Positions 1 through 59,181 of a stretch of 64,000 bases of DNA are shown in pieces (position 1 is the stretch's first letter; every line of letters begins with the position of its first letter). The position numbers and the translations under genes were made by a program. Source of the DNA: an uncultured Clostridia bacterium (lineage in GTDB: Bacteria; Bacillota; Clostridia; TANB77; CAG-508); the NCBI GenBank assembly GCA_934162535.1, contig CAKPJC010000001.1, forward strand, positions 15,577-79,576, read 5' to 3'. The notes under the pieces were generated by a model, which was not told the origin of the DNA, did no database searches, and was given only the letters and a program-made list of their open reading frames with translations.

Positions 1-852
1 ATTTCGCTTGATGGAGAATCTTGGGGTTCTAAGATAACAATAAATCAAGCAGCATTAGCTGCAGCAACTGCAAATATATACCAATGGCCAACAGCTTTAA
101 ATCCAGTATCTACTACAGGTACTACAAGTAGTGGTAAATTAGAAATGTTTGCAGGAGATGTTGATGCTACAGGAGCAAAACTAACAAATGCAGCAGCTGA
201 AACAGATTTGACAACTGGTGGAGTTGGAGGAAAATATATTGCATTTGATTTATATTTTAAAAATTCATCTTCACAAGCAGATGGTGATAAACTACAATTA
301 AATGCAGGAACATCAGTTGCAATTAATGCTGAAAATGGTAAAGCAGGAACAGGATTGGAAAATTGTATTAGATCAGGACTTGTATTGTATAGTAATTCAG
401 AGGTCATGACTGCTGATGGAACAACTGTAAGAAGTATTGCTCCTGGAACACCAGGTGTATGTATTTGGGAACCAAACTATAACAAACATATTGCAGAGGT
501 TGTAAAAAATGATGCTAGAGTAACATCAGCAGATGCAGTACTTCCAACATATGGATTAAAATCTGCAGGAAATGGAACAATTGAGGGAATAAATGAAGCA
601 ACACCAACAGCACCAGAAATAGGAGAGCAAAAAACATTACAAACAGAAGCATCACTTACTGATGCGCTAGAAATGAAAAACCTTGGTACTGATCCAATTA
701 TGTTAAAACCAAATGCAATAATGAAATCAAGAGTATATGTATGGATTGAAGGACAAGATGTTGACTGTATAGATACAGCATCAACAGGTAAACAAATAGA
801 CATAACATTGAAATTCACAAAACCAGAAGTACAACATGATGCTGGTCCATAG
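1..852 (+). CDS. secreted Thr/Gly/Ala/Asn-rich protein, 5' partial (open to window edge); candidate SipW-cognate TasA/camelysin-like matrix protein
   Basis: Frame 1 has no stop from nt 1 to 852, so the track's Met at 145 is internal. Composition resembles a low-complexity secreted protein. It lies same-strand and about 1.9 kb upstream of a clear SipW-type signal peptidase. A hairpin plus T-run follows it. Confidence 0.45.
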   Translation: MSLDGESWGSKITINQAALAAATANIYQWPTALNPVSTTGTTSSGKLEMFAGDVDATGAKLTNAAAETDLTTGGVGGKYIAFDLYFKNSSSQADGDKLQLNAGTSVAINAENGKAGTGLENCIRSGLVLYSNSEVMTADGTTVRSIAPGTPGVCIWEPNYNKHIAEVVKNDARVTSADAVLPTYGLKSAGNGTIEGINEATPTAPEIGEQKTLQTEASLTDALEMKNLGTDPIMLKPNAIMKSRVYVWIEGQDVDCIDTASTGKQIDITLKFTKPEVQHDAGP

Positions 853-867
853 TGAGATTATTAGAAA

Positions 868-899
868 AAAGAGTAATATAATATGTTACTCTTTTTTTT
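868..899 (+). terminator. rho-independent terminator (AGAGTAA-loop-TTACTCT followed by T8)
   Basis: Perfect 7-bp stem with a 9-nt loop and a run of 8 T immediately downstream of the stop at 850-852. Confidence 0.6.
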
Positions 900-1011
900 G
901 CTTTACGCAAATTGTTAAAAAACTAACAAAATTGTCAAAAAAATTCAAAAAATATATAGACAGAAAAGCAAATATTTAATATAATGTACACGAGAAAAGA
1001 GGTAGATAAAA

Positions 1012-1140
1012 ATGGACATGAACGAAATAGACCTTAACAAAATAGAAAATGAGGAAGTACTTGATTTATATACAAGAACAAAAGAATTCATAGAATTTTT
1101 AGATAATGAAATAAAATCAAATGAGGTGGAGAAAAAATAA
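1012..1140 (+). CDS. 42-aa acidic micro-ORF (MDMNEIDLNKIENEEVLDLYTRTKEFIEFLDNEIKSNEVEKK), translationally coupled (TAATG) to the downstream gene
   Basis: A good SD (AAAGAGG) sits 8 nt upstream of the ATG at 1012. The stop TAA at 1138-1140 overlaps the ATG at 1140 of the next ORF by 1 nt. Codon usage is native. Confidence 0.45.
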   Translation: MDMNEIDLNKIENEEVLDLYTRTKEFIEFLDNEIKSNEVEKK

Positions 1141-2756
1141 TGAGTAGTCCTATAGAAATATTAAATGAAAAAATCGATACAGACAAAGAGATACTATCTG
1201 TAATGCCAAAAAACACAAAGAAAAACGCTGAACTATATGTAAAAAAAGTAACAGAAATAAAAGAAGGGTATCAAAAATATTTAGAAGAAGTCATTACAGA
1301 AATAAAAAGAAGAGCACACAAAATAAACTCAATAAAAGAAAGTCCAGAAATAAAACAAGTAGAAAAAGAACTAAAAAAATTTGAAGGACTAGACTTGCTT
1401 GGAGCTGGAAATACATCATATGAAAAAATGAAACTTGACGAATTGTTATTCATACTACGCAGATTTTACAAAAATAATTTAGAGCAAGTAAATGAAAACA
1501 TATTAGCATGTATAAGAAGATTTGGAGAGGTAGGAGTTGAATTAAAAGTTGATGACTTCAACTACAGCCCATTTGCAAAAAGATATATGAAAAGATTTTT
1601 CAAAGAATACAAAAAAGGCGATGTAAACTCACAAAACATGAAAGACACATTTGAAAAACTATATTGGGAATGTCCAGACATAATAGTACATATAGAATTA
1701 AATATAAGATACTTATATTTAAAACACGAAAAAGAAATAGATAGACACTTTGCAAATGAAAACAAAGAAATATTAAGAGATTTAGAAACATCTGATAGAG
1801 ACTATCTTGAAAAATACAAAACGCTAAGAGCAAAACTAGATGACTTAAATAGTGTAGACAAAAAAGTAATGTTAGACAAATTCTTAAACAAAGAATTAGA
1901 TCCAAAAGACTATGAAGAAAGTGCAACAGAAAAGCAAATATCAAAAATGTTAGCAGAGCCATATGAAACATACACAAAAGCTGACTTAAATGAAATAACA
2001 GAAAACATAGTAAAGTTGTCAAAAACACTAGAAGAATTCCAAAACTATTTAAAATACAAATATGTATATGAAGCAGTATTAAAAATATATAAAGAAAAAG
2101 ACAAATACAAAAATGGATATGAAAAACAAAAAAAAGAAATACAAAAACTTGAAAGCAAACTTGAAAAAACAAATAAAAAATATGAAAACACTGATAAATT
2201 CAAAGAAATGTTTATATTCAAGAAAAACAGTGCAGAAAAATTAAAAACACTAACAATAGATATAAACAACCAAATATCTTCAATAAAAGAACTATATAGA
2301 AAAATAGACAGTATAAAGGTGTACGACAAATTTGCAAGTATGCTAACAGACAACTCAACAATACATGAAGCACTATTTCTAGCAGGCTCATTTTACACAT
2401 TTTTAGTAGAAACAATAATTGAAGAAATACAAGACATACCTGAAAAAGAAATAAACGAAAATGTAAAAGCAATAAGGAACTTTATTACAAGCCCATATAT
2501 AACAATAATAAACAATGTAACAATAAAAGAAGACAAAGACATGGCACTTATGATAAAAGACAAATATAATTTATTCAAAATAAACGTAAAAAAAGAAGAT
2601 TTAGAAGAAACAACAATAGGCTCATTAGTAAACACTGTTGATTCAATAATAAATGCATACAATATAGAAAACAGTGGTCTAGAAATAGATGATGTAAAAT
2701 TCATTTTAAAAGCAAATAAAATATTAGAAGACATAAATGCAGAACAAGACAAATAA
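1140..2756 (+). CDS. 538-aa Lys/Glu-rich, predicted coiled-coil cytoplasmic protein of unknown function, located between the TasA-like gene and sipW
   Basis: Long ORF with strongly periodic charged residues, no TM segment and no signal peptide. The ATG overlaps the stop of the upstream micro-ORF. Confidence 0.7.
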   Translation: MSSPIEILNEKIDTDKEILSVMPKNTKKNAELYVKKVTEIKEGYQKYLEEVITEIKRRAHKINSIKESPEIKQVEKELKKFEGLDLLGAGNTSYEKMKLDELLFILRRFYKNNLEQVNENILACIRRFGEVGVELKVDDFNYSPFAKRYMKRFFKEYKKGDVNSQNMKDTFEKLYWECPDIIVHIELNIRYLYLKHEKEIDRHFANENKEILRDLETSDRDYLEKYKTLRAKLDDLNSVDKKVMLDKFLNKELDPKDYEESATEKQISKMLAEPYETYTKADLNEITENIVKLSKTLEEFQNYLKYKYVYEAVLKIYKEKDKYKNGYEKQKKEIQKLESKLEKTNKKYENTDKFKEMFIFKKNSAEKLKTLTIDINNQISSIKELYRKIDSIKVYDKFASMLTDNSTIHEALFLAGSFYTFLVETIIEEIQDIPEKEINENVKAIRNFITSPYITIINNVTIKEDKDMALMIKDKYNLFKINVKKEDLEETTIGSLVNTVDSIINAYNIENSGLEIDDVKFILKANKILEDINAEQDK

Positions 2757-2770
2757 CTGAAAGGTAAAAT

Positions 2771-3376
2771 ATGAAAGATTACTATGATGGAAAAATAAAA
2801 AATAAACAAAAGAAAACAATCCTTAAAAGCATAATAGTAAAATTAATATATATATTATTAGTCCCAATAATAATTTGGGACATAATAATATTATTTCAAA
2901 CAATGAAAAATCCTTATGAAACACCAAATGTATTTGGAATAAAAACATTTTGCATAATATCAGGAAGTATGGAACCAGAAATATCTGTAAATGATGTAGT
3001 AATAATAAAAGAAACTCCAAAGGAGGAAATAAAAAAAGGAGACATAATATCATTTGATAAAAATGGAGACATAATAACACATAGAATAATATATCTTACA
3101 ACAAACAAAAATGGGGAAACAACATATATTACAAAAGGTGACGCAAATAATATTGAAGACGAAGGATATGTTGAATACAAAGATATAGAAGGCAAAATGA
3201 TAGGGAAAATACCTAAAATAGGAAAGATAATCATGGCACTAAAAAGCGAAACAACATTAATAATCACATTAGTAATTTTAATAACAATTTATATTGTAGA
3301 ACAAAGAATTGAACGCAAAAAAGACATAAGAAAAAACAAAAGAGAAAAATATGAAAAAGAAAAAAATAGCAATTAA
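2771..3376 (+). CDS. sipW: signal peptidase I, SipW-type (ER/archaeal-type S26B) with C-terminal TM and basic tail
   Basis: It has the SGSMEP catalytic-Ser motif, the GDIISF, THRI and TKGDANN blocks, and an N-terminal TM; all are hallmarks of B. subtilis SipW. Confidence 0.85.
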   Translation: MKDYYDGKIKNKQKKTILKSIIVKLIYILLVPIIIWDIIILFQTMKNPYETPNVFGIKTFCIISGSMEPEISVNDVVIIKETPKEEIKKGDIISFDKNGDIITHRIIYLTTNKNGETTYITKGDANNIEDEGYVEYKDIEGKMIGKIPKIGKIIMALKSETTLIITLVILITIYIVEQRIERKKDIRKNKREKYEKEKNSN

Positions 3377-3391
3377 GTTGCTATTTTTTCT
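3362..3391. terminator. bidirectional hairpin (AATAGCAA-TTAAG-TTGCTATT flanked by A/T runs) shared by convergent sipW(+) and the 579-aa gene(-)
   Basis: Perfect 8-bp stem. A5 lies on the left and T6 on the right. The stop codons of both convergent genes lie within or adjacent to the hairpin. Confidence 0.5.
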
Positions 3392-5120
3392 TGCCCTTAC
3401 CTCTTGAAGGTGGTACATTATAAACTATATTAAAACATGAGAATTTATCCAATTCATTGTCATCAAGACAATCAAGATAAATATCTAATTCTTTCAAATT
3501 TTTACATGCTGCAATAACAGCAGGATTTAAGTTAGATTGAAACATTAACTCAAAACCTAATTCAATTGCTTCTTTTAAATGTCCATGTTCTTTTTTCTTG
3601 ATTAATTGATATGCTTCTCTAAATCTTGACTTTATAGGATTTTTAAAGTTTTCTGTAGGAATAATATATTCATTTTGTATTAAATCCTTAACAGAAGAAT
3701 ATTTCTTTTTATTTTTCTTATATTGTCTTTGAACTTCTGCTAACTTGTATGGTAAGATAACTTGATTATCTTCTTCAGAGATTATTAATGTATCATTATC
3801 TTTCATTAAATCTATTTCATCTTCATCTTCATCCTCATCTTCGTCATCTATTTCAATTTGTTTTACAGGTTTTTTCTTTTTTGTAACAGGCTTTTCTTCA
3901 ACCACTTCTTCAGCAGGAGCTGGAGTAGGTGCTACTGGAGCAGGAGCTTGTACAGGCTCTGGTACTGCAACTGGTGCTGGTGCAGGTTGTGGTGTTACAA
4001 CAGGAGCTACTGGTTGAGGTTGTACTACCACTGGTTGCTGTACAGGTTGTGAAACTATTTGTTGTTGCATAATATGTTGTGGTTGAACAACAGGCTGTGG
4101 AATTTGTGCAACTAGTTTTTCTGGTAGTGGTTCATCAATAGATGGACTTACAGAATATGTTTTTGCATGTTTTGCTTTAGATTTTGCATTTGTATCAATT
4201 TTTTCAAATTCATCTGAAAATGTTATTTCATTTTTTTCAACAGATATACTTAATGTAGGGTTATTAACACCAATTTCTATAAAACTTTTGTTGCGATCAA
4301 TTCTTGATACATTTATATATGATGGTACTTCAATTGGCATGTTCGTTATTATAAAATACCCTTTGTTTTCACGAGATATTAATAATACATTTTCTGAGTT
4401 AGATATTTGTACTCCGATTGTTTTTATTGTAAAATTAAAGTTATCATCTTCTATGCAAACGGTTGCATCTTTTTCATTGAATAATACTTTGTATGTATCT
4501 TGTACTGTTGATATTGCAAGTATATCATTATCAGATTTTGGGAAGAAACACAAAAGATCTGATGATGCCTTATCAGTTATTTCTTTGATATTTCTTGTAA
4601 CATTTTTCTTTCCTTTTTCCCTGGTTATAGTGTCTCCCATAATAGCTTGTTTAGCTTCAGTTAATTTTGCCTTATTCTCTCCATTAGAACTTATTGCTTT
4701 GTTAGAGATCGCTGATAATTGCTCAAATGAGTTTATTGTTTTTTGCAATATTTCTCTAACAATTGTAATGTTCTTTTCAACTTTTGTAAATAATTTATTA
4801 TATTGTTCTACATTTTGTTTAAGAGAAGTTTTTTGTCCCAAAATTATATCTAGAATATTATATAAGTTTGTTAAATCTTGTGTGTTTATTCCAATTTGAA
4901 GTAGTGCTGTTTCAAGACTTGCTAATAACATATTTTTAAAAACCTCATCATTTGCAAATGTTGTTGAGATTTCTTCTACATATGTATTTATATAGCTTTT
5001 TAAACTGTTTTGGGAAAGTTGAAGGCCGTCAATTAGAGCCATTTCTTTTGTTATTATAGCATCGAATTGACTTGGGTTTTGTAGTTCTTCATCATAATTT
5101 ATCATAATTTTACTCCTCAT
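3381..5120 (-). CDS. 579-aa hypothetical protein with an N-terminal about 300-aa domain, a Pro/Gln/Val-rich linker (PQPVVQPQ...PAPAPVAV), an acidic DDEDEDEDEDE stretch and a basic C-terminal domain
   Basis: Long ORF with native codon usage. It is divergent from the giant-protein operon. I recognise no catalytic motif. Confidence 0.7.
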   Translation of the reverse strand: MRSKIMINYDEELQNPSQFDAIITKEMALIDGLQLSQNSLKSYINTYVEEISTTFANDEVFKNMLLASLETALLQIGINTQDLTNLYNILDIILGQKTSLKQNVEQYNKLFTKVEKNITIVREILQKTINSFEQLSAISNKAISSNGENKAKLTEAKQAIMGDTITREKGKKNVTRNIKEITDKASSDLLCFFPKSDNDILAISTVQDTYKVLFNEKDATVCIEDDNFNFTIKTIGVQISNSENVLLISRENKGYFIITNMPIEVPSYINVSRIDRNKSFIEIGVNNPTLSISVEKNEITFSDEFEKIDTNAKSKAKHAKTYSVSPSIDEPLPEKLVAQIPQPVVQPQHIMQQQIVSQPVQQPVVVQPQPVAPVVTPQPAPAPVAVPEPVQAPAPVAPTPAPAEEVVEEKPVTKKKKPVKQIEIDDEDEDEDEDEIDLMKDNDTLIISEEDNQVILPYKLAEVQRQYKKNKKKYSSVKDLIQNEYIIPTENFKNPIKSRFREAYQLIKKKEHGHLKEAIELGFELMFQSNLNPAVIAACKNLKELDIYLDCLDDNELDKFSCFNIVYNVPPSRGKGKKK

Positions 5121-5204
5121 TAAAATTCATAATACAAAACAAATTATAACATATAAAATATAAATTTCCAACAAAATTTCCAAAAAAAATATATTTTTTT
5201 TATT

Positions 5205-5290
5205 AAAAAAATGTAATAAAAATGTAAAGAAAAAGTAATATAAATGTAATATTAAATACAGAAAAAAATGTAGAAAAAAAAAGTAAAATA
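5205..5290. repeat. helically phased array of A(T/A)GTAA motifs (about 11-12 bp spacing) in a 213-bp divergent promoter region
   Basis: ATGTAA at 5211, 5222 and 5244, AGTAAT at 5234, ATGTAG at 5268 and AGTAAA at 5282, each embedded in A-tracts. Confidence 0.4.
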
Positions 5291-5333
5291 TGATATACTC
5301 TCAATCAGAAGTGTAAACTTGTCAAAAAAGTGA

Positions 5334-5894
5334 ATGGAGGGCAAAATGAGACGTTCAAAAAAAAGAAAAAACGGCATTTTACATTCAACAGGACAGCGAC
5401 GTAGAAACTACAAAAGAAGAAAAAAAATACTATTTTTTGACATAATACTAATTTTAACACTTATTATAATTTTTAATTTATTTGTAAAAAAAGAAGATGA
5501 AATACCAGTAGTAGAAAAATATAGTGAAGAACATCAAAAACAAATAATAAATGAAGAATTAGAGAAACAAAACATAACACAAGAAGCACAAAATAAAGAC
5601 ACAATAGAAATACCTGTGCCAGAAAAACAAAGTGGTTCAATGATAATAAATAAAATAACAATGTCAGAAATAGAAGATGGAAAAACAATATTAAGTTTTT
5701 TGATAGAAAATAAAGGGAAGAGTGATGGAGGTTCATCATTTCCTATTTTATTAAAAGGTGTAGATGGAAATGTAATTTTAAAAACATACATAGATGTACC
5801 AGTAATAAAAGCTGGGCAACAGACAAAAACAAACATAGTAATAGATGAAAAAATAAAAGATGTAGAAAGCACAGAACTCACAGATGAACAATAG
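5334..5894 (+). CDS. small bitopic membrane protein with a very basic N-terminus (RRSKKRKN...RRRNYKRRKK), one TM and an extracytoplasmic domain of about 120 aa; the true start is possibly ATG 5346
   Basis: The ORF has a GGAGGG SD just upstream of ATG 5346. It is the first gene of a probable operon with the giant protein. A TGaTATACT extended -10 lies at about 5293-5301. Confidence 0.6.
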   Translation: MEGKMRRSKKRKNGILHSTGQRRRNYKRRKKILFFDIILILTLIIIFNLFVKKEDEIPVVEKYSEEHQKQIINEELEKQNITQEAQNKDTIEIPVPEKQSGSMIINKITMSEIEDGKTILSFLIENKGKSDGGSSFPILLKGVDGNVILKTYIDVPVIKAGQQTKTNIVIDEKIKDVESTELTDEQ

Positions 5895-5903
5895 GAGGAA
5901 AGA

Positions 5904-8900
5904 ATGAAATACTTTGAGAAATATCAAAAAAGAAAATTTCATAAAAAAATAGTGAACACAGCTTTTTTATTAATATTCTCAATTATAGCAATAACATCAT
6001 ATTATACAGCTAATTTTTCAAAGGCAAAAGATATAATAGAAGTAAATGTTAATATAAAAGATACAATAATAAGTGAAAGCATAGAAAAATGCAAAGTAAA
6101 TGCGACAGAAGGAATTGATGGAGAATCATTTTATGTGAAATTACCAAAATATATTAATAACAAAAAGGTAATAAAATATTCATATAGCACAGAAAATGCA
6201 GGAGTATCAACAGATACAGAACAAACTGCGGAAAACGAGGTAGAAAAAGCTGTAAAAGCAGAACAAAATGTGCCATTAAACCAAATAGGACCAAATGACA
6301 TATTACCAGAAAGCAAAATATATTTAACATCAACAGAAGTAAAGAAACAAGAATTAACAATATTAGCACATTATGATATAAGAGAACAAAATGGCAAAAA
6401 TTTATATAATCAATATATTGAAGATACAAAAGATAATAACAAAATAACTGTATCAGGCTATATGCCGGAAAATGCGAAACTAATAATACAAGAAGTTGAC
6501 AAAAAAGAAGCTCAAACAACAATAAGACAACAAAGCCAAAGACCCATAATATTGGCAGTAGCATATGACATAAAAATTCAATGTGGAGAAGACATATATG
6601 AGCCATACGAATTTGACCAAAACATAAATGTAAAAATAGAAAAAGAAGATTTAAAAGAAAAAGAGACAAATGTATGGCATATAGATGACAAAAACAAAGT
6701 AGAAAAGTTAGAACAAAAGCCAGAAACAAATGATATAGAATTTGTAACAAATGGATTTTCAATATTTGGACTAGAAGATGTAGAAGCAACAGAATTGGCA
6801 CTTGATGGAATGGCAGATAGTATTTTAACAATAGATGATGCAGAATCAGATAAATACTACTGGCAAGGTCAAAATTACACAGAAGACACAACAGGAGAAA
6901 ACAAAAACATATACACGGAATATGCGAACGTTACAGTAAATTATCATGGATATGGATTAAATGAAGTAGAACCAGAAAAAATAGGATATGTATCATTAAC
7001 AGAAAAATATAATATAGTTACATACAAAAAAACTGCACCAATAGTTAGTGGAAACATATCTATTGAATTAGTAGATAATCCATTTATAGATAGACCAACT
7101 GGATACGGATTTGGTGGATGGACATCACCAGATGGGATAATATCAACAGATACAAAGACAAAAACACAAACAATTACTGCAACAGGTTCAAAAAATGTGA
7201 CACTAAACATATATGCAAACTGGAAAACAGCAACAGTAGTGTACTTGAACTCAGATGGAGGAAATGACAACTTAAATGATGGATTATCTCCTGAAACACC
7301 ATTTGGTTCATGGAGTAGAGCATATGAATATTTATATAACAACTCACAAGATAGAACTGACAGAGAAAACAACATAATAGTATTGACAGGAAACATAGAC
7401 TCAACTATGCATGGCTCAAGGACAGTAACAGGTTCACAAACAATGCTTGCAGATGTTACATATGAATCATCAACAACATTCACATCAGGAGAAAAATATA
7501 TATTAGCAACAGGGACAGGAGAAGGAAGCAATGCACTTGCTGGGATAAATGGAAGCATAGAAAATGCAACATTATCAACAACAGAAAAGCCACCAGCAGG
7601 AGCTGAATGGATAATCCAACAATCTGGAAATGGATATACAATAAAGAATAATGATAATTGGCAGTATTTACACCATTCAAGATATAGTGGATTATATTTT
7701 AGTGATTCGTCATTTACTTGGACATATGATATTAACAATAGAAGATTTTATTATCAGACTACTGGATGGAGAAGAACGACATATTATTTAAGATATAATA
7801 ATGGAACATGGACAACAACAACAAATGCGAATTCAGCACAAAGTTTTTATTTTCTAAAATGTAAAGTAGAAAATGAAAGACCAGGTCCAATTGTAAATAC
7901 AAAATCGGATAATATAGGAAGTAACAACAACTATACATCATCAAGAAATGTTGCCTCAACAATAACAAGTTTATATGGACATGTGGATTATAGAGATAAT
8001 GCGATAATGGACTTAACCCAAAATAATTATAGACATATATATGCATATGCGGATTTACAAATAGAATATTTGAATATAAATGCGACAGGCTACACAAGAG
8101 CATGCGGAACAGACGGAATATCAATAAGCACAAGATATCCAGTGTTTTACGGAAGAGCACACAATTTTAGAATAGGCAGAGGAATAAAACAAGCAGGAAC
8201 AAGCAATGATGCATCAACAGCAGGTGCAGTAATAGGAGGATTTGAATCAGGAACAACAGTAGGAAGTACATATAATTCAAATAATGCATATAAATTAGTA
8301 ATAGAATCAGGAAAATATTCATCAATACTTGCATGGAATATGCGTGATGAAACAGCGAGCTATTATGGAACAGTAAATTGGACTTTAGGAAATGATATAG
8401 ACAGAGTTTTAAAAGAGAATAGTCAATTAAAATCTTATTTTAGAAATACTGTAAATGCAGGAGGAGGAGTAAACGGCAGAGCAAATGTAAGAGATAAAGC
8501 ATATCTGATAAATGTAAAAAGTGGGACTTTTGGAGTGGATGCAGTAACAGATGGATATGGTGATGCATACACATCTGGAATTTATATGGGAGGATATGGA
8601 ACAGGTTCAAGTAGTGGCACAAGAGACATAAGTGATAGATATATGATAGTAGAAGGTGGATTAATATATAACATAAACTGTGGACTAAAGGTAGATAGTG
8701 GAAAGACAGATATATTAACAAAACTTTATGTAAAAGGTGGAGAAATATATAACATTGTCGGTGGAGCAGGATTATCAACTACATACGGTTCAAGAATACA
8801 ACAAATAACAGGAGGAAAAATAAGATATAGTGTAAGTGGTGGTTCAAATGGATATAGTGGGTCAGATGGTGATGGACAAATATCAAATTGCAATACATTG

Positions 8901-11900
8901 GTATATATAGGTGGAAATGCACAAATAGGGGATGAAACACTTGTAGGATATGTAACAGACAATAACACATCAAATGATGACCAAGGAAAATTATATCTAG
9001 TAGAAGCAGGATGCGTTTTAGGAGCAGGAAACGGAAGTAACCCTAATTATACAGCTGGTCAAGTAGACAATTCACATATTATAATTGCAGATGAAGCACA
9101 TATACTAAACAGTGTATATGGTGGTGGAAACTACGGAATAGTAGGTAATAGAAATGGAACAACAGCAAAAGCAACAATAGACATTTTAGGTGGAACGGTT
9201 GATAGAAATGTATATGGGGGCTCAAATAATAGTAGCATATTTGGTTCAACAACAGTAAATGTAAAGGGAGGACATGTTAAAGGGGCTGTATATGGTGGAA
9301 CAAACACATCAGGTACTGTAAGTTCAACAGCTACAGTAAATGTAACTGGTGGAATATTAGGAAATGACACAAATGCAGAAGATAATGAGGCATTATTTGG
9401 TGGAGGATATGGTCAAAGTACAACAGTTTCAGGAAAAGCAACAGTGAATATATTAGACACGTCTTCAAATGTATATATATATGGTAGTGCATATGGAGGA
9501 AGCTCACTTGGTAGAATGAACTCAAATGTTGAAGTAAACATTCAAGATATACCAGGAAACTCAAATATAATATCAATTGTAGGTTCTGTATTTGCAGGAG
9601 GAAAAGGAACAACAACAACATCTGCTACAATTGCAGGAAGTGCAACATTAAATATAGATGGAAGCAATTTACCAGATTGTAGTGTATTTGGTGGAAATGA
9701 TATAAATGGTACAACATCAGGTGCAATAACAGTTAATGTTGGTAGAACATATGAATCAAAACTAAAAAATGCATATGGTGGAGGAAATAAAGCAGGAATA
9801 ACAACAACAACTCCAAGTGTAAGAGTGTATTTACTAGCAAATTCAAATGTAACAAATGCATTTAATGGTGGTAGAGCTGCAAACCTAACATCATCAGGAA
9901 CATCTGATGCAACAAGAGCAATTTACTTACAAGGAGGAAAGGCTAAAAATATATTTGGTGGATCAGACTCATCAGGAACAGTTACAGCAAGTCATGTATA
10001 TATAGAATCAGGTACAGCAGAAAATGTATATGGTGGAAACAATATTGGAGGAACAACAAATACAACATATGTATATGTTACAGGAGGAACAGTAACAAAT
10101 ACATATGGAGGAGGTTACCAAGCGTCAACACCAGCAACAAATGTTAGCCTAACAGGAGGAACAGTAACAAACGGATTTGGTGGAGGAAATGCAGCAGATG
10201 TAACCAATACATCAATATCACTTGCTGGAAGTACTGCAACAAATATATATGGTGGCTCAAATGAAAAAGGCACAGTTTCAAGTACATATGTAACCATAAA
10301 TTCTGGAACAGTAACAAACGTATATGGAGGAAACAACGCAGGTGGAAAATCAGTAAATACAGAAGTAATAGTTAATTCTTCTACAGAAAATGTATATGGA
10401 GGAGGAAATGAGGCTATAACATCTGGAGACACACTTGTAACATTACATAATGCAACAATTACAGGAAGTGCATTTGGAGGAGGAAATGGTGCTGCAGCTA
10501 TAGTTTTAGGAAATAGTGTAATTACAGCCGATGGAACAACAAACATAGCACATGACCTATTTGGTGGAGGAAATGCAGCAGCAACAGGTTCATCATCAAA
10601 AACATCAAAAGTTACAGTTGACATATCAGGAGGAACAATAAGAGGAGATGTTTATGGAGCAGCAAACACATCAGTTGTTACAGGTGAAACACATGTTAAT
10701 ATAGGAACAACAGTTGTTTCAACAACAGGACTAACACAAGGAACAATAGATATTGCAGGAACAGTATTTGGTGGAGGAAAATCAAATACAGCTGGTTCAG
10801 AAGACTACGACTTCTCATTTGAGAGTGTTATAGGAAATACATATATAGACATAAATGCAGAAAATTATGACAATGGAACATATACATATAATATAAGAAA
10901 AAGTATATTTGGAGCAGGAAATGCTGCAACAATGTCAGGAGATGGATACATAAATATAACTAATTACGGAAAAGCTAGTGATATAAAACAAAACATATCA
11001 ATACAAAGAGCAACGACAGTTACAATAGACAATAGTGTAATGTATCTTGAAGGAACAACAGATAGGACAAACGAAATATCGACAGCTGTATATACATTAA
11101 ACAGAATAAAAGATTTAAAAGTAAAAAATAATACAACATTATATTTAGCAAGTGGTGCTAATATACTTGAAAAACTTACAAGTATAGACTCATCAGAATC
11201 AAAAGCAACAGTAACAATTGGTCCAAATGGAGTATTATCAAGAAATGTAGATAATAGAATTTACTTATTACAAGGAAAGAACTTAATTTTAAAAACAGAA
11301 GCTGGTGCACATGGTGAAGTATATGGAATGACATATGTAGGTTTATTCAAAGGAATACTTAATAGAGATACAGGAATATATGGAACAAACTATAATCATG
11401 GAGACACAGTTCCAGCAGATTATGAAGAATTTGCAAGAAATTCATATGTTCAAGGTAAACACTATGATGGGCATGATATAAAAATAGATGGTTTCTATAC
11501 AAACTATGAGGAAGATGGAGTCATTGCAACAAAATATATAGAACCAACACCAGAATCAGCACCATATTATCAATGGATATTAGGTAAAGTTTCAGATGAT
11601 ATATATTATGATGAAATAGAATTAATTGCAACAAAATATGCAACGACATCAACATATGTATTGGACTTAACAGGACTTGATTTCCCAAATATGACAGTAA
11701 ATGTTATAGGATTTGATACATCAGAATTAAGAAATGATGTAATATTAAAAGACAATAGTGAAATACCTAATATTGAAATGGATGCAACAAAAGCAAATAC
11801 AACATTTGGATTAACAATGACAGCAGGAAATACAGGATGGCAAACAAAAGGAACAACAGCATATTACACATCATCAGATAATCAAAATAATGGTACATTT

Positions 11901-13517
11901 AGTGGAACAGAACAATACTTAAGTGATAACTCAACAACAACACCATCATTCAGTTTCTACATGGGTCACTCAAAGAATGTAAGTACAAATGAGGTACTTG
12001 GTTCAGTAACAATACATTTACAAGTATCATATGTATCAGGAGATGAACTTATATTAAGAAATGTATATATACCATTAAGATTATCAACAAACAATACATT
12101 CAAATTAGCAACAGACTTCTATGAAGGAGCTATAACACCAGGTAAAAAATATAGCATGTTCCCAACAACAAATACAAGTATAACAAGTAACAGCTCATTC
12201 TCAGCATATTACTCATTATACTTAGGTGGATACTCACAAGACCAAGAATATTATGATAATTTTGTAGGATATAATCATTATCTTGTATCAAGCTGTGTAT
12301 TACCTGCAAAAACCAAAATAACATTTGTTGATAGGTCAAAAGATGAAATAAAATACTATTATTATATAGTAACAGACCAGGATGAACAAAACGCTAGAAA
12401 AGAATACAAATTCCAAGACTTTACTGCAATGGGAAGTACTGATGAAGGAACAGGAAGGACGGCTGAAAAATACAATAATGACTCAAGTTATTTGAATACA
12501 ACATTAGATATAGTATTAGAGGAATTTATATTCCAAGTGGACTTTGCAGATATTACATTAGCAAATACATTTGCAAATCAGTCACTAACGGTTCAATTAA
12601 GAGATATGTGGGATGATAGCGTTAAATTAAAAGTTAATACAGACCAATATCCAATGCTATTTAACTTATATAGTGACAAAGAAGCTATAAAGAGTGTAGA
12701 TGTAAATTCAAATAAAACATATATTTATATGGGAAATGAATTTAAAGTGGATTTAAAAACAGTATATGAATTCCAAACAGAAAATGCAGATACTGTATAT
12801 GATACAACACACTTTGAAGATCAGCTTGGTGTAAAAATAACTGTATTAGAAGGTAGTACACAATTATCATCAACAGACTTAACAGGTATATATGTAGAGT
12901 ATAATGGAAAAAGATATTATGCAAGAACTGATGGTTCATACAGAATAAAAATAGCAGATGCTGTTTCAAATGTATTAACTGACATGGTATTCTATACAGA
13001 AAATGGTAAACTAGATACGGCAACATATACATTCAAATTTGAGACATTTGGCTCAATAGATGGAGTATATTTCTCTAGCGCAATTGCAACAGATAGTATA
13101 AATATGCAAATAATAAATGCAGATTATGGTTTATCAGCTATATTAGATGATAAATCGGTACTAATAGACAAAGCAACAGGAATAACAAAAAATAATGATA
13201 ATGCTTTAGATTTTACAATAGGATATTCAGCAGAATTTACAAATCCTAAAATATGTGTATCATTATATAGAAGAGATTATTCAAGCATATATAGTTCAAA
13301 ATATAATTTAATAGACTTAGCAAATTATGTTTCAAATACTCTAACACCAACGGCTGTTGAAAAAGAATATTTGGTAACAGATAATCCACAAGCTACACAA
13401 AATTTTGTATTAAGACTAAAAGATAATCTTACAACGGGAACATATAAAATTGTATTCTCACTATATGATGGAGAAAATTACATAGGAAATATAGACAAAA
13501 TGATTATCATTAAATAA
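5904..13517 (+). CDS. giant (2537-aa) secreted or surface protein with an N-terminal signal anchor, a central tract of about 700 aa of about 22-residue beta-helix-type repeats (..V.GG.V.NVYGGxN..) and no LPXTG motif; putative adhesin or matrix fibre protein
   Basis: Uninterrupted 7.6-kb ORF with an SD (AGGAGG) before the ATG and an N-terminal hydrophobic segment. Dozens of degenerate YGG[GSN]N / FGGGN repeat units occur between about aa 980 and 1700. The C-terminus ends ...DKMIIIK with no sortase signal. Confidence 0.8.
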   Translation: MKYFEKYQKRKFHKKIVNTAFLLIFSIIAITSYYTANFSKAKDIIEVNVNIKDTIISESIEKCKVNATEGIDGESFYVKLPKYINNKKVIKYSYSTENAGVSTDTEQTAENEVEKAVKAEQNVPLNQIGPNDILPESKIYLTSTEVKKQELTILAHYDIREQNGKNLYNQYIEDTKDNNKITVSGYMPENAKLIIQEVDKKEAQTTIRQQSQRPIILAVAYDIKIQCGEDIYEPYEFDQNINVKIEKEDLKEKETNVWHIDDKNKVEKLEQKPETNDIEFVTNGFSIFGLEDVEATELALDGMADSILTIDDAESDKYYWQGQNYTEDTTGENKNIYTEYANVTVNYHGYGLNEVEPEKIGYVSLTEKYNIVTYKKTAPIVSGNISIELVDNPFIDRPTGYGFGGWTSPDGIISTDTKTKTQTITATGSKNVTLNIYANWKTATVVYLNSDGGNDNLNDGLSPETPFGSWSRAYEYLYNNSQDRTDRENNIIVLTGNIDSTMHGSRTVTGSQTMLADVTYESSTTFTSGEKYILATGTGEGSNALAGINGSIENATLSTTEKPPAGAEWIIQQSGNGYTIKNNDNWQYLHHSRYSGLYFSDSSFTWTYDINNRRFYYQTTGWRRTTYYLRYNNGTWTTTTNANSAQSFYFLKCKVENERPGPIVNTKSDNIGSNNNYTSSRNVASTITSLYGHVDYRDNAIMDLTQNNYRHIYAYADLQIEYLNINATGYTRACGTDGISISTRYPVFYGRAHNFRIGRGIKQAGTSNDASTAGAVIGGFESGTTVGSTYNSNNAYKLVIESGKYSSILAWNMRDETASYYGTVNWTLGNDIDRVLKENSQLKSYFRNTVNAGGGVNGRANVRDKAYLINVKSGTFGVDAVTDGYGDAYTSGIYMGGYGTGSSSGTRDISDRYMIVEGGLIYNINCGLKVDSGKTDILTKLYVKGGEIYNIVGGAGLSTTYGSRIQQITGGKIRYSVSGGSNGYSGSDGDGQISNCNTLVYIGGNAQIGDETLVGYVTDNNTSNDDQGKLYLVEAGCVLGAGNGSNPNYTAGQVDNSHIIIADEAHILNSVYGGGNYGIVGNRNGTTAKATIDILGGTVDRNVYGGSNNSSIFGSTTVNVKGGHVKGAVYGGTNTSGTVSSTATVNVTGGILGNDTNAEDNEALFGGGYGQSTTVSGKATVNILDTSSNVYIYGSAYGGSSLGRMNSNVEVNIQDIPGNSNIISIVGSVFAGGKGTTTTSATIAGSATLNIDGSNLPDCSVFGGNDINGTTSGAITVNVGRTYESKLKNAYGGGNKAGITTTTPSVRVYLLANSNVTNAFNGGRAANLTSSGTSDATRAIYLQGGKAKNIFGGSDSSGTVTASHVYIESGTAENVYGGNNIGGTTNTTYVYVTGGTVTNTYGGGYQASTPATNVSLTGGTVTNGFGGGNAADVTNTSISLAGSTATNIYGGSNEKGTVSSTYVTINSGTVTNVYGGNNAGGKSVNTEVIVNSSTENVYGGGNEAITSGDTLVTLHNATITGSAFGGGNGAAAIVLGNSVITADGTTNIAHDLFGGGNAAATGSSSKTSKVTVDISGGTIRGDVYGAANTSVVTGETHVNIGTTVVSTTGLTQGTIDIAGTVFGGGKSNTAGSEDYDFSFESVIGNTYIDINAENYDNGTYTYNIRKSIFGAGNAATMSGDGYINITNYGKASDIKQNISIQRATTVTIDNSVMYLEGTTDRTNEISTAVYTLNRIKDLKVKNNTTLYLASGANILEKLTSIDSSESKATVTIGPNGVLSRNVDNRIYLLQGKNLILKTEAGAHGEVYGMTYVGLFKGILNRDTGIYGTNYNHGDTVPADYEEFARNSYVQGKHYDGHDIKIDGFYTNYEEDGVIATKYIEPTPESAPYYQWILGKVSDDIYYDEIELIATKYATTSTYVLDLTGLDFPNMTVNVIGFDTSELRNDVILKDNSEIPNIEMDATKANTTFGLTMTAGNTGWQTKGTTAYYTSSDNQNNGTFSGTEQYLSDNSTTTPSFSFYMGHSKNVSTNEVLGSVTIHLQVSYVSGDELILRNVYIPLRLSTNNTFKLATDFYEGAITPGKKYSMFPTTNTSITSNSSFSAYYSLYLGGYSQDQEYYDNFVGYNHYLVSSCVLPAKTKITFVDRSKDEIKYYYYIVTDQDEQNARKEYKFQDFTAMGSTDEGTGRTAEKYNNDSSYLNTTLDIVLEEFIFQVDFADITLANTFANQSLTVQLRDMWDDSVKLKVNTDQYPMLFNLYSDKEAIKSVDVNSNKTYIYMGNEFKVDLKTVYEFQTENADTVYDTTHFEDQLGVKITVLEGSTQLSSTDLTGIYVEYNGKRYYARTDGSYRIKIADAVSNVLTDMVFYTENGKLDTATYTFKFETFGSIDGVYFSSAIATDSINMQIINADYGLSAILDDKSVLIDKATGITKNNDNALDFTIGYSAEFTNPKICVSLYRRDYSSIYSSKYNLIDLANYVSNTLTPTAVEKEYLVTDNPQATQNFVLRLKDNLTTGTYKIVFSLYDGENYIGNIDKMIIIK

Positions 13518-13610
13518 GATAAAACGCAGTTTCTATGTAGAAACATTATACCAATAGAAAGTTCGAGAAAAAATCCTATTGGATAAAATGATTAGTTGAA
13601 AGGGGTATTT

Positions 13611-15089
13611 ATGAAAAAATCAAACAAAACAATAATAATAGTAATTTCAATTGTTTTAGTAATAATGTTAATTGTTGGGGGGGTTGCATATGCATATATA
13701 GCAACAGACTTATTTAAAAGTAATAAAGAAATGTTTTTTAAATATTTTTCACAAGTTACAGATAAAGATACAGGAATAATTAACAAAAATCTAAATGATT
13801 ATTTTACTAAAAAAAGTAGTGAATCATATCAAAATAGAGGAAATATAAAATTTAACTATTCAGATAATACAGGTACAAATATGATGGATTCAAAAATATC
13901 TGACAAATTAAATGAATTATCAATTGAATTTGATGGAATATCAAACAAAGAAAAAAATATTACAAATAGAAATATTACAATTAATTATGGAAATGATGTA
14001 ACATTTCCAATTAAATATATAAAAGATCAAGAACTACATGGTGTACAATCTAAATATATAGGAAGTAAATATGTTTCTATTAGGAACAGTAATTTGCAAC
14101 AATTGGCTTCTAAACTTGGAATGGATACAACATTTATTCCTAATAAAATAGAGATTTCAGAAAAAAAGGAAAAAATAAAATTTACTGAAGAGGAATTAGC
14201 AAAAATAAAAAGCACATATGGTCCAATTATTGAGCAGGGGCTAACAGATGATAATTTTTCAAAGGAAGCAAATAATAAAGGAGAAAGCAATTATATATTA
14301 GCAGTTTCTGGAGACCAATTAAAAAATATAATGATAAACTTATTAGAGGCATTTAAACAAGATAAAGATTTAATAAAAAGATTAAATGAAAATATTAATT
14401 TAACTGAAATAAATACATCAAAACAAATAACGCAACAACAAATAAGCGAGATATTAAAAGAATTACAAGAAAAAGATTCATCAGAATTTAAAGAATTGAA
14501 AATTATGATTGGCTATTCAAAAAAATCTGTAAATGAAATTATGATACAATATGACCAAATAGTAATAAATATGAAAAAAGAAAAAAATAGTAATAGTGAA
14601 AAATATTCAGTAAATTTACAGATAAATAATAATGAGGAACAGGAAGATGTAAAAGACATTAGTACTGTAAGAATTGATTTTGAAGCAAATTATAATGGAT
14701 TAGATGAGTTAAAAGATGTTTCGGGAGAATATATGATAAAAATAAAAGCTATAACAAATGATAATACAGATTTACAATATCAGTATAATATAACAAATGA
14801 GGTACAATTTAATGATTCTATAGATGTTGTAAAACTTGATAATAGAAATACTTTTATTTTAAATGATGTTGAAGATAATGTACTTACCAGCTTTTTAACA
14901 AAAGCGAGCGAAAGAATTCAAACAGTAAATAAAGAACAAATGCAACAATTAGGATTAGAAGAAGATGAAAATCCATTATTATATACAAATTTTATTACTT
15001 ATTATTATGTTGAAACAATAAAATCAGTACAGTCAATTTATGAGAATTCAGTGAAACCATATGAAATGAATAGTAAAGGTAACGAATAA
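13611..15089 (+). CDS. membrane-anchored (N-terminal TM) extracytoplasmic protein of unknown function, last gene of the giant-protein operon
   Basis: The SD GAAAGGGG lies 5 nt before ATG 13611; the track start at 13596 overlaps the SD. No terminator separates it from the giant gene. A strong terminator follows. Confidence 0.65.
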   Translation: MKKSNKTIIIVISIVLVIMLIVGGVAYAYIATDLFKSNKEMFFKYFSQVTDKDTGIINKNLNDYFTKKSSESYQNRGNIKFNYSDNTGTNMMDSKISDKLNELSIEFDGISNKEKNITNRNITINYGNDVTFPIKYIKDQELHGVQSKYIGSKYVSIRNSNLQQLASKLGMDTTFIPNKIEISEKKEKIKFTEEELAKIKSTYGPIIEQGLTDDNFSKEANNKGESNYILAVSGDQLKNIMINLLEAFKQDKDLIKRLNENINLTEINTSKQITQQQISEILKELQEKDSSEFKELKIMIGYSKKSVNEIMIQYDQIVINMKKEKNSNSEKYSVNLQINNNEEQEDVKDISTVRIDFEANYNGLDELKDVSGEYMIKIKAITNDNTDLQYQYNITNEVQFNDSIDVVKLDNRNTFILNDVEDNVLTSFLTKASERIQTVNKEQMQQLGLEEDENPLLYTNFITYYYVETIKSVQSIYENSVKPYEMNSKGNE

Positions 15090-15131
15090 GAGAGTATAAA
15101 TATTATAAAATTTATGGATATGTGATTAAAA

Positions 15132-15160
15132 ATAGCAAGAAACACTTGCTATTTTTTTTT
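15132..15160 (+). terminator. rho-independent terminator (ATAGCAAG-AAACA-CTTGCTAT followed by T9)
   Basis: Perfect 8-bp stem followed by a run of 9 T. Confidence 0.7.
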
Positions 15161-15197: not shown

Positions 15198-15857
15198 ATG
15201 GTAGAAATATCAACATCAATCCTAACAGTAGAAAAAGGAAAAGAATCAGAAGTATTTTTCGCACTAGAAAAATCCAAAATAGACTACTTTCACATTGACG
15301 TAATGGACGGAAAATTCGTAGAAAAAGACACATATCAAAAAATGTTAGAATATAGTAGTTATATTAGGAGAATATCAAACTTACCAATGGATGTACATCT
15401 TATGGTAGAAGATGTAAAGCAAGCGATAGAAGACTTCTCAACAGTAGAACCAAACATAATAACATTTCATTTAGAGGCATGTAAAACAAAAGAAGAAGTA
15501 ATGGATAGAATACAACAAATAAAAGAAAATGGTTCAAGAGTAGGAATAGCAATAAAGCCAGAAACAAAAATAGAAGAAGTATATGAATATTTGCCATACA
15601 TACATGTGTGTTTAATAATGACTGTAGAACCAGGAAAAGGAGGACAAACATTAATAACAGATATGTTAGCAAAAATATCAACACTAAAAACTTACATAGA
15701 AAAGAACAATATAGAAATAGATATTGAAGTTGATGGTGGAATAAACATAAAAACAGCACCAAGGGTAAAAGAAGCAGGAGCAGATATTTTAGTTGCAGGA
15801 ACTGCAATTTTAATAGCATCTGACTATAAAGCTATTATAGATGAACTAAAAAGTTAA
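15198..15857 (+). CDS. rpe: ribulose-phosphate 3-epimerase
   Basis: HIDVMDG, HLMVEDV and VDGGIN blocks, about 219 aa, with a strong SD. Confidence 0.85.
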
Positions 15858-57561: not shown

Positions 57562-59181
57562 ATGCCAAGTTATTTAGGAATGTATATTGAAGACAATTTA
57601 ATAAAATATGCCAAAGTATCAAAAGAAAAAGAAAAAGTAAAAATAGATTCTTTTGGTATTAAATTCTATTCAAATATATCACAAGCGGTAAAACAAATAA
57701 TAGAAGAAACATACAGTTTCAAAACCCCGATAAGTGTGAATTTGACTGAGGAAACATACCAATATTTTAATATGTTTTCTTTATTAAATAAAAAAGACTT
57801 AGAAAAAGCAATAAAACTTGAGTTTGAATCTTATTGTACAGATAAGGGCTATAATTCAAACTCTTTAGAAACTAGATATGCTATAGTAAATAATGCAGAA
57901 GATAAAGAAAAATTAAAAGTAATTAATATAAGTGATAACAAAATAGAATTAAACAAAGTGCAACAAAAATTAGATGGATATAGAATTGGAACAATTGCAC
58001 CAGTTGCAATGACAATTCCAAACTTAACAAGTCCTGAAAAAAAGGAAAATTCACTAATAGTTAATATTGAAGAAAAAACGACAATTACAACTGTAATAAA
58101 CGGAAATGTATATGAAGTTGAAACACTAGATGAAGGAAGTAAACAAATACTTGAAAAAATAAATTTAAAGGAAAATTCATATTCGAAAGCATATGAAATA
58201 TGTCAAAACACAACAATATATACAGCAGATGTACAAGACTTTGTGGAAGAACAAAGCAGGTATTTAGAAGACATAATGCCAACACTATATAATATAGTAG
58301 GAAGAGTACAAAAAATAATAAATGAGAGTGTAGAAAAAATTGGAAAAGTATATATTACAGGAACTTTGTCATGTGTTAATAATATTGACTTATATTTTCA
58401 AGAATATTTGGGAAAAGTAAAATGTGAAATACTTAAACCATATTTTGTACAAAATATTATAAAAGATGTTAATATAAAAGAATATGTTGAAGTAAACTCT
58501 GCTATATCATTAGCATTACAAGGGCTAGGAGAAGGAATAAGTGGAATAAACTTCAAAAAGAAAACATTTAATGATAGTTTTTGGAATATCACAATAGGTG
58601 GAAAGGATAAAGATAGTTCAAAAAATAGTAAGATTTTTGGGGACTTTAATCTAAATGATTTTACAGAAAAATTATCAAAAACTGAAGTTGGAATTATAAG
58701 AAGCCTAGTATCATTATTAATATTTATAATAATATATAGTGCATTTTCAGTTTTGCTAACAAAGCAAATTGATAAAAAAGAAATAGAGGTTGACAGTATA
58801 ACAACCAAAATAAATGCTCAAATATCAAGAGTAAAAACAGACACAACAGCATTAAACTCAAAAACGACACAATATACTACACTAATATCAGATTTACAAG
58901 CCGTAAATGAAAAAATAAGTGATATGAATGCTAGTAAAAACTTAATACCAAACTTATTAAACCAAATAATGAGTGCTATAGATGAGACAGTACAAATCAC
59001 ATCTATAGAAAATACAACAGGAAGGCATATTGTAATAGTTGCTCAGTCATCAAAATATCCAGGACTAGGATATTTCAAGACAAGATTAAAAACTAAAAAC
59101 ATACTTCAAAATGTTGTTTCAGGAAGTAGTGTAAAACAAAATGGAGTAATAACTGTTACGATTGAAGGTGATTTGCCATGA
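57562..59181 (+). CDS. pilM: type IV pilus assembly protein, fused PilM (actin-like ATPase fold) and PilN-like (TM plus periplasmic domain)
   Basis: N-terminal PilM-like block (LGMYIEDNLIKYAKV...), a TM segment near aa 385-410, then a coiled PilN-like region. It sits at the head of a pilus cluster containing pilD and pilB. Confidence 0.7.
   Translation: MPSYLGMYIEDNLIKYAKVSKEKEKVKIDSFGIKFYSNISQAVKQIIEETYSFKTPISVNLTEETYQYFNMFSLLNKKDLEKAIKLEFESYCTDKGYNSNSLETRYAIVNNAEDKEKLKVINISDNKIELNKVQQKLDGYRIGTIAPVAMTIPNLTSPEKKENSLIVNIEEKTTITTVINGNVYEVETLDEGSKQILEKINLKENSYSKAYEICQNTTIYTADVQDFVEEQSRYLEDIMPTLYNIVGRVQKIINESVEKIGKVYITGTLSCVNNIDLYFQEYLGKVKCEILKPYFVQNIIKDVNIKEYVEVNSAISLALQGLGEGISGINFKKKTFNDSFWNITIGGKDKDSSKNSKIFGDFNLNDFTEKLSKTEVGIIRSLVSLLIFIIIYSAFSVLLTKQIDKKEIEVDSITTKINAQISRVKTDTTALNSKTTQYTTLISDLQAVNEKISDMNASKNLIPNLLNQIMSAIDETVQITSIENTTGRHIVIVAQSSKYPGLGYFKTRLKTKNILQNVVSGSSVKQNGVITVTIEGDLP

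Follow-up and report, generated by a model that had tools for sequence, protein, structure and literature searches.

The first 15,160 positions of the 64-kb stretch of Clostridia DNA analysed here (the window) are the downstream half of a chromosomal gene cluster of approximately 25 kb and 22 genes, which runs about 9.9 kb further upstream and has its final 15.1 kb inside the window. Judged from its protein sequences, the cluster is of the CoCoPALM type, since it encodes the GTPase, the McrC-like partner and the signal peptidases that characterise this type. Such clusters have been named in print yet are essentially uncharacterised. The cluster probably builds a Sec- and SipW-dependent surface fibre or appendage that is coupled to a membrane GTPase derived from McrBC.

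The original prediction for this region was an undescribed, SipW-centred module for a surface fibre or biofilm matrix. A surface fibre is still the best reading: ORF1, the first open reading frame (ORF) of the window, is an exported protein with a SipW-cognate signal just short of the cut-off, the giant protein has an N-terminal motif of similar kind, and the adjacency of the sipW gene to a giant gene recurs in related genomes. However, the frame of a SipW/TasA variant has been replaced by that of a CoCoPALM-type cluster. SipW is not its centre: the window holds only half of the cluster, in which four paralogous peptidases and a GTPase pair derived from McrBC are encoded. Its type already carries the name CoCoPALM (PMC11090510), so the module is not wholly undescribed.

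Gene Content

The ORFs and coordinates listed in the original prediction were all reproduced in the ORF map, as were the Pro/Gln linker and acidic tract of one protein and the coupling of the genes for proteins of 42 and 538 amino acids (aa). The strong terminator at the end of the region was also confirmed. The features of the cluster inside the window are as follows (TM, transmembrane; ER, endoplasmic reticulum).

1-852, plus strand: the 3' 283 codons of ORF1, a protein of 339 aa at full length
862-900, plus strand: terminator-like hairpin with U8 just past ORF1 (-15.7 kcal/mol, z -6.1)
957-985, plus strand: sigma-70-like promoter match TAGACA-17-TATAAT upstream of m42 (11/12 matches)
1012-1140, plus strand: m42, an acidic cytoplasmic protein of 42 aa without a TM segment; TAATG overlap with the next gene
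1140-2756, plus strand: cc538, a largely helical cytoplasmic protein of 538 aa without a TM segment
2771-3376, plus strand: sipW201, a signal peptidase I of the ER/archaeal type, identified by TIGR02228, catalytic boxes and TM helices
3381-5120, minus strand: pq579, a convergent cytoplasmic protein of 579 aa without a TM segment
5334-5894, plus strand: n186, a single-pass membrane protein of 186 aa with its TM helix at residues 32-50
5904-13517, plus strand: the giant protein, 2537 aa, predicted to be exported, with an N-terminal signal that carries the cluster motif
13596-15089, plus strand: a protein of 497 aa with Pfam domain DUF6583 (E 5.6e-20; score 71.9 bits, cut-off 27)
15128-15156, plus strand: hairpin and U-tract terminator that closes the cluster (dG -13.8 kcal/mol, z -4.2)

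The upstream gene order is sp0 (166 aa), g0 (210 aa), sp1 (169 aa), a186, b284, c337, d509, e367, sp2, f212, g195 (minus strand), h246 and ORF1. It continues in the window with the 3' part of ORF1, m42, cc538, sipW201, pq579 (minus strand), n186, the giant gene and the DUF6583 gene. The upstream part was recovered by an exact-match look-up of the 538-aa protein in human-gut metagenome contigs, and a second look-up set the boundary, where miaB-mutS and a terminator are followed by a sigma-A-like promoter, TTGCAA-17-TGgTATAAT. The start of ORF1 lies 168 nt before the first position of the window, where the gene overlaps the stop codon of its membrane-anchored paralog h246. Upon RNA folding, none of 200 shuffled sequences was as stable as the hairpin at 862-900. 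The promoter match at 957-985 is the best of the region by consensus only, and the number of promoter-like sites is not above that in shuffled sequence.

Conservation of the Cluster

A pattern scan with the ORF1 alignment, which took one genome per species, found 18 loci, all in metagenome-assembled genomes (MAGs) of uncultured Clostridia from human, sheep, goat and other gut sources. Synteny was tested by comparing the reference proteins, in BLASTP, with the six-frame ORFs of the loci, whose flanks stop inside the giant gene. Gene order and orientation are identical in every locus long enough to show them. The order in the window, including sipW beside the giant gene, is repeated in at least 13 other Clostridia MAG loci at 40-80% protein identity; the adjacency that the original prediction pointed to is thus conserved across divergent genomes. 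Across the loci numbered L007 to L023, synteny holds at 40-90% identity. The GTPase d509 is the most conserved gene, with 72-89% identity across loci. Identities to the window proteins are 40-69% for ORF1, 42-80% for cc538 (17 loci), 42-63% for sipW201, 37-78% for pq579 (at least 11 loci) and 40-67% for the giant protein, whose orthologues occupy the same position in at least 12 loci. Orthologues of m42 are found at the same position in 15 loci with 40-76% identity. Since gene order is kept across such divergent genomes, the arrangement is far beyond chance. Distant ORF1 relatives with 27-34% identity are still found in an f-g-h-ORF1 or sp2-f-h-ORF1 arrangement, and a rearranged variant of the cluster retains the core at 23-52% identity.

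Exported Proteins and Their Signals

At least seven proteins share a common N-terminal design: ORF1, f212, g195, g0, a186, b284 and the giant protein. In the alignment, read by eye, this design consists of a basic stretch, a hydrophobic helix and the motif [ST]-x-[AS]↓aromatic, where the arrow marks the putative cleavage site. The cleavage-like motifs are STYA↓WF, NTYA↓WF, TTYA↓KY, TTLA↓RY and TSLS↓KY, with STLA↓YY in orthologues of the giant protein; in fuller form, [ST]-[TS]-[YL]-[AS] comes before either an aromatic residue or a K/R-aromatic pair, which resembles the TasA site. The signals are of the class I type: their basic N-region is long, and the putative cleavage site comes behind the hydrophobic helix. 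The 497-aa DUF6583 protein, called membrane-anchored in the original prediction, may be an eighth carrier of the motif. Its N-terminal hydrophobic segment ends with GGVAYA↓YIATD, and an alternative ATG is present at 13611. A metagenome scan for DUF6583 neighbours found no relatives. TIGR04088, the model for SipW-cognate signals, scored 18.3 bits (E 0.0019) against a cut-off of 19 on the N-terminal 70 aa of ORF1 and did not match the giant protein, n186, the DUF6583 protein or the other paralogs. The expectation of such signals was therefore borne out only in part, with ORF1 close to the cut-off and the motif of the giant protein alike by eye.

Profile comparison by hhalign shows the small predicted exported proteins to be distant paralogs of one another. 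The values are 92% for a186 with g195, 88% for a186 with b284, 88% over 168 columns for f212 with g195, 94% for f212 with ORF1 and 93% for h246 with ORF1, the last via a shared W-I-EG-x-D-x-x-C motif. In h246 and n186, a strong TM helix accompanies a basic tail and the cleavage motif is missing; from these features we read both proteins as membrane-anchored, paralog-like members. For n186, the predicted layout is a single TM helix between a basic cytoplasmic tail and an extracellular domain of about 130 aa. Orthologues of n186 are found directly 5' of the giant gene in L007-L010 with 34-38% identity; the protein is too divergent for detection in more distant loci.

ORF1, described in the original prediction as a low-complexity protein, is instead a 339-aa member of a large conserved family, for which at least 1657 clusters of homologues (90% identity) and 3756 representatives (50% identity) were counted. 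No Pfam domain or informative name was found among the members of this family. The signal, the mature N-terminus and a C-terminal acidic motif, YVWIEGQDVDCIDTASTGK, are strikingly conserved in the alignment. The most conserved part is the mature N-terminal 30 residues (0.83 versus 0.48-0.67 for the core). The AlphaFold2 (AF2) model is a beta-sandwich behind the signal helix, with a predicted local distance difference test score (pLDDT) of 86.8 and a predicted template modelling score (pTM) of 0.82. Foldseek of this model against the PDB gave no match at E<0.001, and a sequence search against the PDB gave no significant relative. ORF1 is the probable major fibre subunit: it has its own terminator, is occasionally duplicated and belongs to a very large family, which makes it the best candidate for that role. 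Its invariant acidic C-terminal motif, W-x-EGQD-x-DC-x-DTASTG, may bind Ca2+.

Tandem duplication of the ORF1 gene is seen in three related genomes (L007, 8908-10969; L008, 8927-10975; L009, 8936-11020), where each copy is 63-69% identical to ORF1 of the window. In another genome (GCA_045648625.1; L028, 6460-11328), a stand-alone gene amid housekeeping genes (peptidyl-prolyl isomerase, ylxM and ffh) encodes a protein of 1622 aa. This protein consists of a complete ORF1-like domain, with the STYAWF signal and the motif RVYVWIEGQDVDC, followed by about 1200 aa of repeated domains. The fusion of an ORF1-like domain to such an extension fits a module for polymerisation or attachment, as in pilin-adhesin fusions.

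The original prediction also regarded ORF1 as a TasA-like candidate. Export and a SipW-cognate signal near the cut-off support this, whereas homology to the TasA family does not: neither ORF1 nor any paralog had a Pfam match to PF12389 (Peptidase_M73) at E<0.1. In hhalign, the probability stayed below 3% for all eight groups against both TasA and a 111-sequence PF12389 alignment. The TasA query sequence was checked against 8aur. The alignments of a186 and f212 put the cleavage motif and 'PG(D/M)...N.G' in register with TasA without significance, and the N-terminus of b284 gave a weak match to TapA. ORF1 may work like TasA but, by sequence, is not a member of the TasA family. The mature N-terminal strand of TasA is reportedly conserved as the donor strand, to which the mature N-terminus of ORF1 can be likened.

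In the centre of the giant protein (residues about 900-1700), a region of about 800 residues rich in Gly, Asn, Ser and Thr contains a [FY]GG[GSN]N repeat every 24-32 residues or so, and this spacing suggests a parallel beta-helix. The C-terminal region is aromatic-rich and has no C-terminal anchor. The giant protein has no match in Pfam, NCBIfam, PHROGs or the PDB. Its N-terminal motif is ITS↓YYT in the source species and ST[LI]A↓[YF]YF in orthologues. From synteny and the N-terminal motif we infer that it may be displayed on, or released with, the fibre.

Signal Peptidases

Four paralogous peptidases of the ER type are encoded in the cluster: two are canonical, sp2 has an altered Asp box, and sp0 is without a His box. 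The canonical sipW201 scores 93.5 bits with TIGR02228 (cut-off 51.85) and 83.5 bits with NF046067, the equivalog model of Bacillus SipW, whose cut-off is 190. Since the latter score is far below the cut-off, sipW201 is SipW-type, as the original prediction stated, and not an orthologue of SipW. TM helices at residues 21-39 and 153-171 lie at its N- and C-terminal sides. Its Ser box (SGSMEP), His box (ITHRI) and Asp box (KGDAN) are taken by us to hold the catalytic residues, an assignment that draws on SipW mutagenesis. The second canonical enzyme, sp1, is also above the TIGR02228 cut-off with 67.9 bits.

In sp2, the Ser and His boxes are retained and KGIAN replaces KGDAN. In the source species, sp2 is split into ORFs of 117 and 89 aa (L001, 5801-6154 and 6195-6464), which lie some 2.4-3.1 kb before the window begins. 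It is split in every covering assembly of the species (five, plus L025-L027) and is a single ORF of about 215 aa in 14 other genomes. The split has the look of a true frameshift or pseudogene rather than of an error in assembly. At the head of the cluster, sp0 (L025, 5840-6340) encodes a protein with the two-TM topology of its paralogs and a DSSLEP box. Because both the His box and the GDxN box are missing, sp0 is a possible pseudo-peptidase, which may bind signals without cutting them.

McrBC-Derived Pair and Cytoplasmic Proteins

The GTPase d509 has one TM helix (62-80), a long helix (93-124) and then an AAA+ domain. In the PDB, only McrB GTPases are related to it (E 1.6e-4), and the alignment matches up Walker A, Walker B and N-N-D-D. 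The signature N350-N351-D352-D353 is invariant in 40 sequences, and its spacing fits NxD plus a second Asp as well as NxxD. The profile search for d509 homologues gave close relatives only (at least 67% identity). The GTPase family comprises at least 8000 clusters at 90% identity, and d509 matches the PADLOC candidate PDC-M26A with E 2.8e-35. Directly downstream is e367, a protein of 367 aa with the McrC N-terminal domain DUF2357 (45.1 bits against a cut-off of 23.3). No nuclease family was found in e367 with Pfam, NCBIfam or PADLOC, and its sequence gave nothing significant against the PDB.

The closest plasmid relative of d509 is an 812-aa coiled-coil McrB-like protein encoded next to a 746-aa DUF2357 protein on a plasmid of Pseudanabaena sp. 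ABRG5-3 (NZ_AP017561.1, 187127-206380; L031). Their neighbours are a helicase, a VWA protein, a PP2C phosphatase, a Ser/Thr kinase and Phd/VapC, and the region looks like a CoCoNuT-like defence island.

Four further proteins, c337, m42, cc538 and pq579, lack a TM helix, and searches of Pfam, NCBIfam, PADLOC and the PDB found no relatives for them, even with profiles (13 sequences in the case of cc538). The TAA stop of m42 overlaps the ATG of cc538, so the two are translationally coupled. The original prediction put cc538 in the place of TapA; it is cytoplasmic and therefore not a TapA analogue. In pq579, an N-terminal domain is followed by a P/Q-rich linker, an acidic tract and a C-terminal domain of about 130 aa, which likewise has no Pfam or PDB relative. 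The C-terminal domain (3381-3800, minus strand) is nearly invariant even across genomes where the remainder of the protein shares only 37-45% identity. In library scans, no cluster protein matched a helix-turn-helix family at E<0.1; SinR and SinI were not checked window-wide. Searches of Pfam, NCBIfam and PADLOC revealed neither nuclease nor toxin domains in the cluster proteins.

Proposed Mechanism

In the fibre reading, the proteins would be exported via Sec, and the dedicated peptidases would cut their signals and expose the highly conserved N-terminal strand. By analogy with TasA, ORF1 would polymerise by donor-strand complementation, and the small paralogs would serve as initiator, adaptor or terminator subunits. 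The structure would be anchored in the membrane by h246 and n186, with the giant beta-helix protein displayed as an adhesin or tip. On the cytoplasmic side, d509 and the nuclease-less e367, together with c337, m42/cc538 and pq579, may provide regulated, nucleotide-dependent control of export or assembly.

Several points weigh against this reading. No sequence link to TasA or any PDB entry was found, and donor-strand assembly is therefore an analogy. The organisms are uncultured. The only link between GTPase and fibre is conserved gene order, and the relatives of the GTPase are defence systems. The giant protein is counted as a member on synteny and a short N-terminal motif. The AF2 model of d509 has a pLDDT of only 52.5, from a multiple sequence alignment of 40 sequences with at least 67% identity. 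As for FtsB homology, the matches of d509 to DivIC and FtsL_2 are sub-threshold, with DivIC at E 0.06-0.7 in three of eight orthologues.

A more far-reaching claim, which we put forward as a tentative and rather doubtful one, is that the cluster represents a new filament machine in monoderms. Such a machine would combine Sec export, specialised ER-type peptidases and strand complementation with the drive of a hexameric McrB-family GTPase. The GTPase, activated by its McrC partner, would drive or gate the assembly, anchoring or retraction of the fibre and its beta-helix tip, a restriction motor having been co-opted. The pathway would then be unrelated to sortase, type IV/Tad, chaperone-usher and curli systems.

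Alternative Explanations

Three rival explanations are weighed here in decreasing order of likelihood. The first is that the whole cluster is a defence or conflict system, in which a McrBC-derived sensor controls the export of surface proteins against phage adsorption or for altruistic aggregation, rather than a constitutive adhesive pilus. The defence ancestry of the GTPase pair and the treatment of CoCoPALM as a CoCoNuT-like branch speak for this, and the giant beta-helix protein might serve to shield the surface. However, the cluster lies at a chromosomal site between mutS and rpe/pgi, its gene order is held down to about 40% protein identity with strongly conserved structural genes, and its proteins are without detectable nuclease or toxin domains. 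We consider this explanation unlikely.

The second is an ordinary SipW/TasA-like matrix operon into which an unrelated McrBC-type anti-phage module, c337-d509-e367, was inserted. The only characterised relatives of d509 are McrB restriction GTPases, the match to a PADLOC defence candidate points the same way, and the nearest plasmid homologues are found in CoCoNuT-like defence loci with helicases and toxin-antitoxin genes. Yet the trio lies between genes for exported proteins and peptidases in all 14 of the 14 loci that cover the region. Unlike the variable defence islands, d509 is the most conserved protein of the cluster (72-89%), and in it a TM helix and a coiled coil take the place of the DNA reader of McrB. 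Its partner e367, with 367 aa, has DUF2357 only and no nuclease domain match. Furthermore, Bell et al. independently tie the GTPase clade to signal peptidases. These observations make an inserted module improbable.

The third takes the giant protein, n186 and the DUF6583 protein as an independent adhesin or envelope operon processed by a housekeeping signal peptidase. These genes have their own AT-rich upstream region of 213 nt after the convergent gene and their own terminator, the ITS↓YYT motif is less canonical than that of ORF1, and hhalign found no homology between the N-terminal 450 aa of the giant protein and the small subunits. Against this, the giant gene follows pq579 in at least 12 loci whose ORF1 is only 40-66% identical, and its orthologues carry ST[LI]A↓[YF]YF, near the cluster motif. 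A separate operon is quite improbable.

Other candidates were rejected. A canonical TasA operon is excluded by the lack of PF12389 homology and a different composition, and canonical McrBC type IV restriction by the N-terminus of d509, which has a TM segment and helices instead of a DNA-binding domain, and by the nuclease-less e367. A mobile element or prophage origin in the source species was rejected because the cluster is flanked by mutS and rpe/pgi; PHROGs matches were weak and non-specific. A Tad or type IV pilus was rejected since no secretion ATPase (TadA/PilB), platform protein or prepilin peptidase family was matched and the signals are of class I rather than class III.

Comparison with Known Systems

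CoCoPALM is named in one paragraph by Bell et al. (eLife 2024; PMC11090510) as a large clade of NxD-motif McrB GTPases associated with signal peptidases, and a full account is deferred to a later publication, which was not found in the literature. The clade is treated there as a CoCoNuT-like branch. The present cluster agrees with that description in its McrB-like GTPase with the N-x-D motif and a second Asp, in the N-terminal TM and coiled-coil region that replaces the DNA-binding domain, in the DUF2357 partner without a nuclease, and in the tight association with genes of the signal peptidase family. A fusion of the GTPase to an FtsB-like TM and coiled-coil region also belongs to the description of the type; in d509, the likeness to FtsB is only sub-threshold. 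That paper does not deal with the families of exported subunits, nor with the giant beta-helix protein, DUF6583, cc538/m42, pq579 and c337.

The tapA-sipW-tasA operon of B. subtilis and the calY/tasA/sipW/capP genes of B. cereus also place a dedicated ER-type peptidase beside its substrates. Their signals, like those here, run from a basic N-region through a hydrophobic helix to a small residue at -1, with an aromatic residue after it (GTWA↓AF in TasA, STYA↓WF here), and one major subunit is accompanied by several accessory paralogs. In contrast to the Bacillus systems, four peptidase paralogs (not one), at least seven substrates and a partner of 2537 aa are found here, without detectable PF12389 homology. 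The cytoplasmic components and the membrane GTPase have no counterpart in Bacillus, and SinR/SinI were unseen in the cluster.

Archaeal filaments of the TasA superfamily, namely the 0406 thread of Sulfolobus, the bundling pili AbpA of Pyrobaculum and the cannulae CanX/AbpX of Pyrodictium, differ in being free of chaperones and NTPases. Their subunits have about 150-230 aa, compared with about 307 aa for mature ORF1. The sipW-bsaA system of C. perfringens (PMC7395162) likewise has a clostridial, SipW-linked polymerising matrix protein. Its architecture is set apart by one peptidase, no McrBC-like pair and no giant protein. A preprint (bioRxiv 10.1101/2024.11.04.621531) reportedly links matrix-protein export to an NTP-driven machine, with type IV pilus genes. 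Another pilus-like cluster conserved in uncultured Clostridia of the gut with low GC content is the Tad-type pilus of the order TANB77 ('pilin 938'; PMC11680825). Its genes encode CpaB/TadZ/CpaE/TadA/TadBC together with type IV-like pilins; none of these is among the proteins described here, and the two are different systems.

If the fibre reading is true, very abundant uncultured Clostridia of gut and rumen bear a large surface organelle that is conserved among them and has hardly any annotated parts. The major-subunit and GTPase families, cc538, pq579, c337 and the giant protein are among its unannotated ones. The cluster would be a testable case of a McrBC restriction motor reused for protein export or assembly, and fibre biology of the SipW/TasA type would reach well beyond Bacillus. 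It would also supply the missing cargo side of CoCoPALM, a type that has been named in print and no more until now. In gut commensals, surface fibres and giant adhesins are also candidate factors in host interaction and immunomodulation.

Distant Variant and Genomic Surroundings

A rearranged distant core is found in L030 (1-10276), with cc-like, sipW-like, sp2-like, f-like and h-like genes. It also encodes a 463-aa ORF1-like protein and a 550-aa f-like protein, followed by a 1109-aa protein with Peptidase_C1 and Big_3 domains and an ordinary Sec signal.

In the source species, the cluster is chromosomal, between mutS and rpe/pgi. The ORFs at 15198 and 15875, downstream of the cluster, are taken to be rpe and pgi, as read from sequence alone. 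No Rfam family reached the gathering threshold over the whole window. The remaining genes are housekeeping genes, including those for trigger factor, SecA, PNPase and a VanW/G5 wall protein. Amid these well-annotated genes, a 539-aa ORF without a Pfam family at E<=1e-5 is located at 57562-59181 on the plus strand. G+C is even across the window, at about 26-35%.

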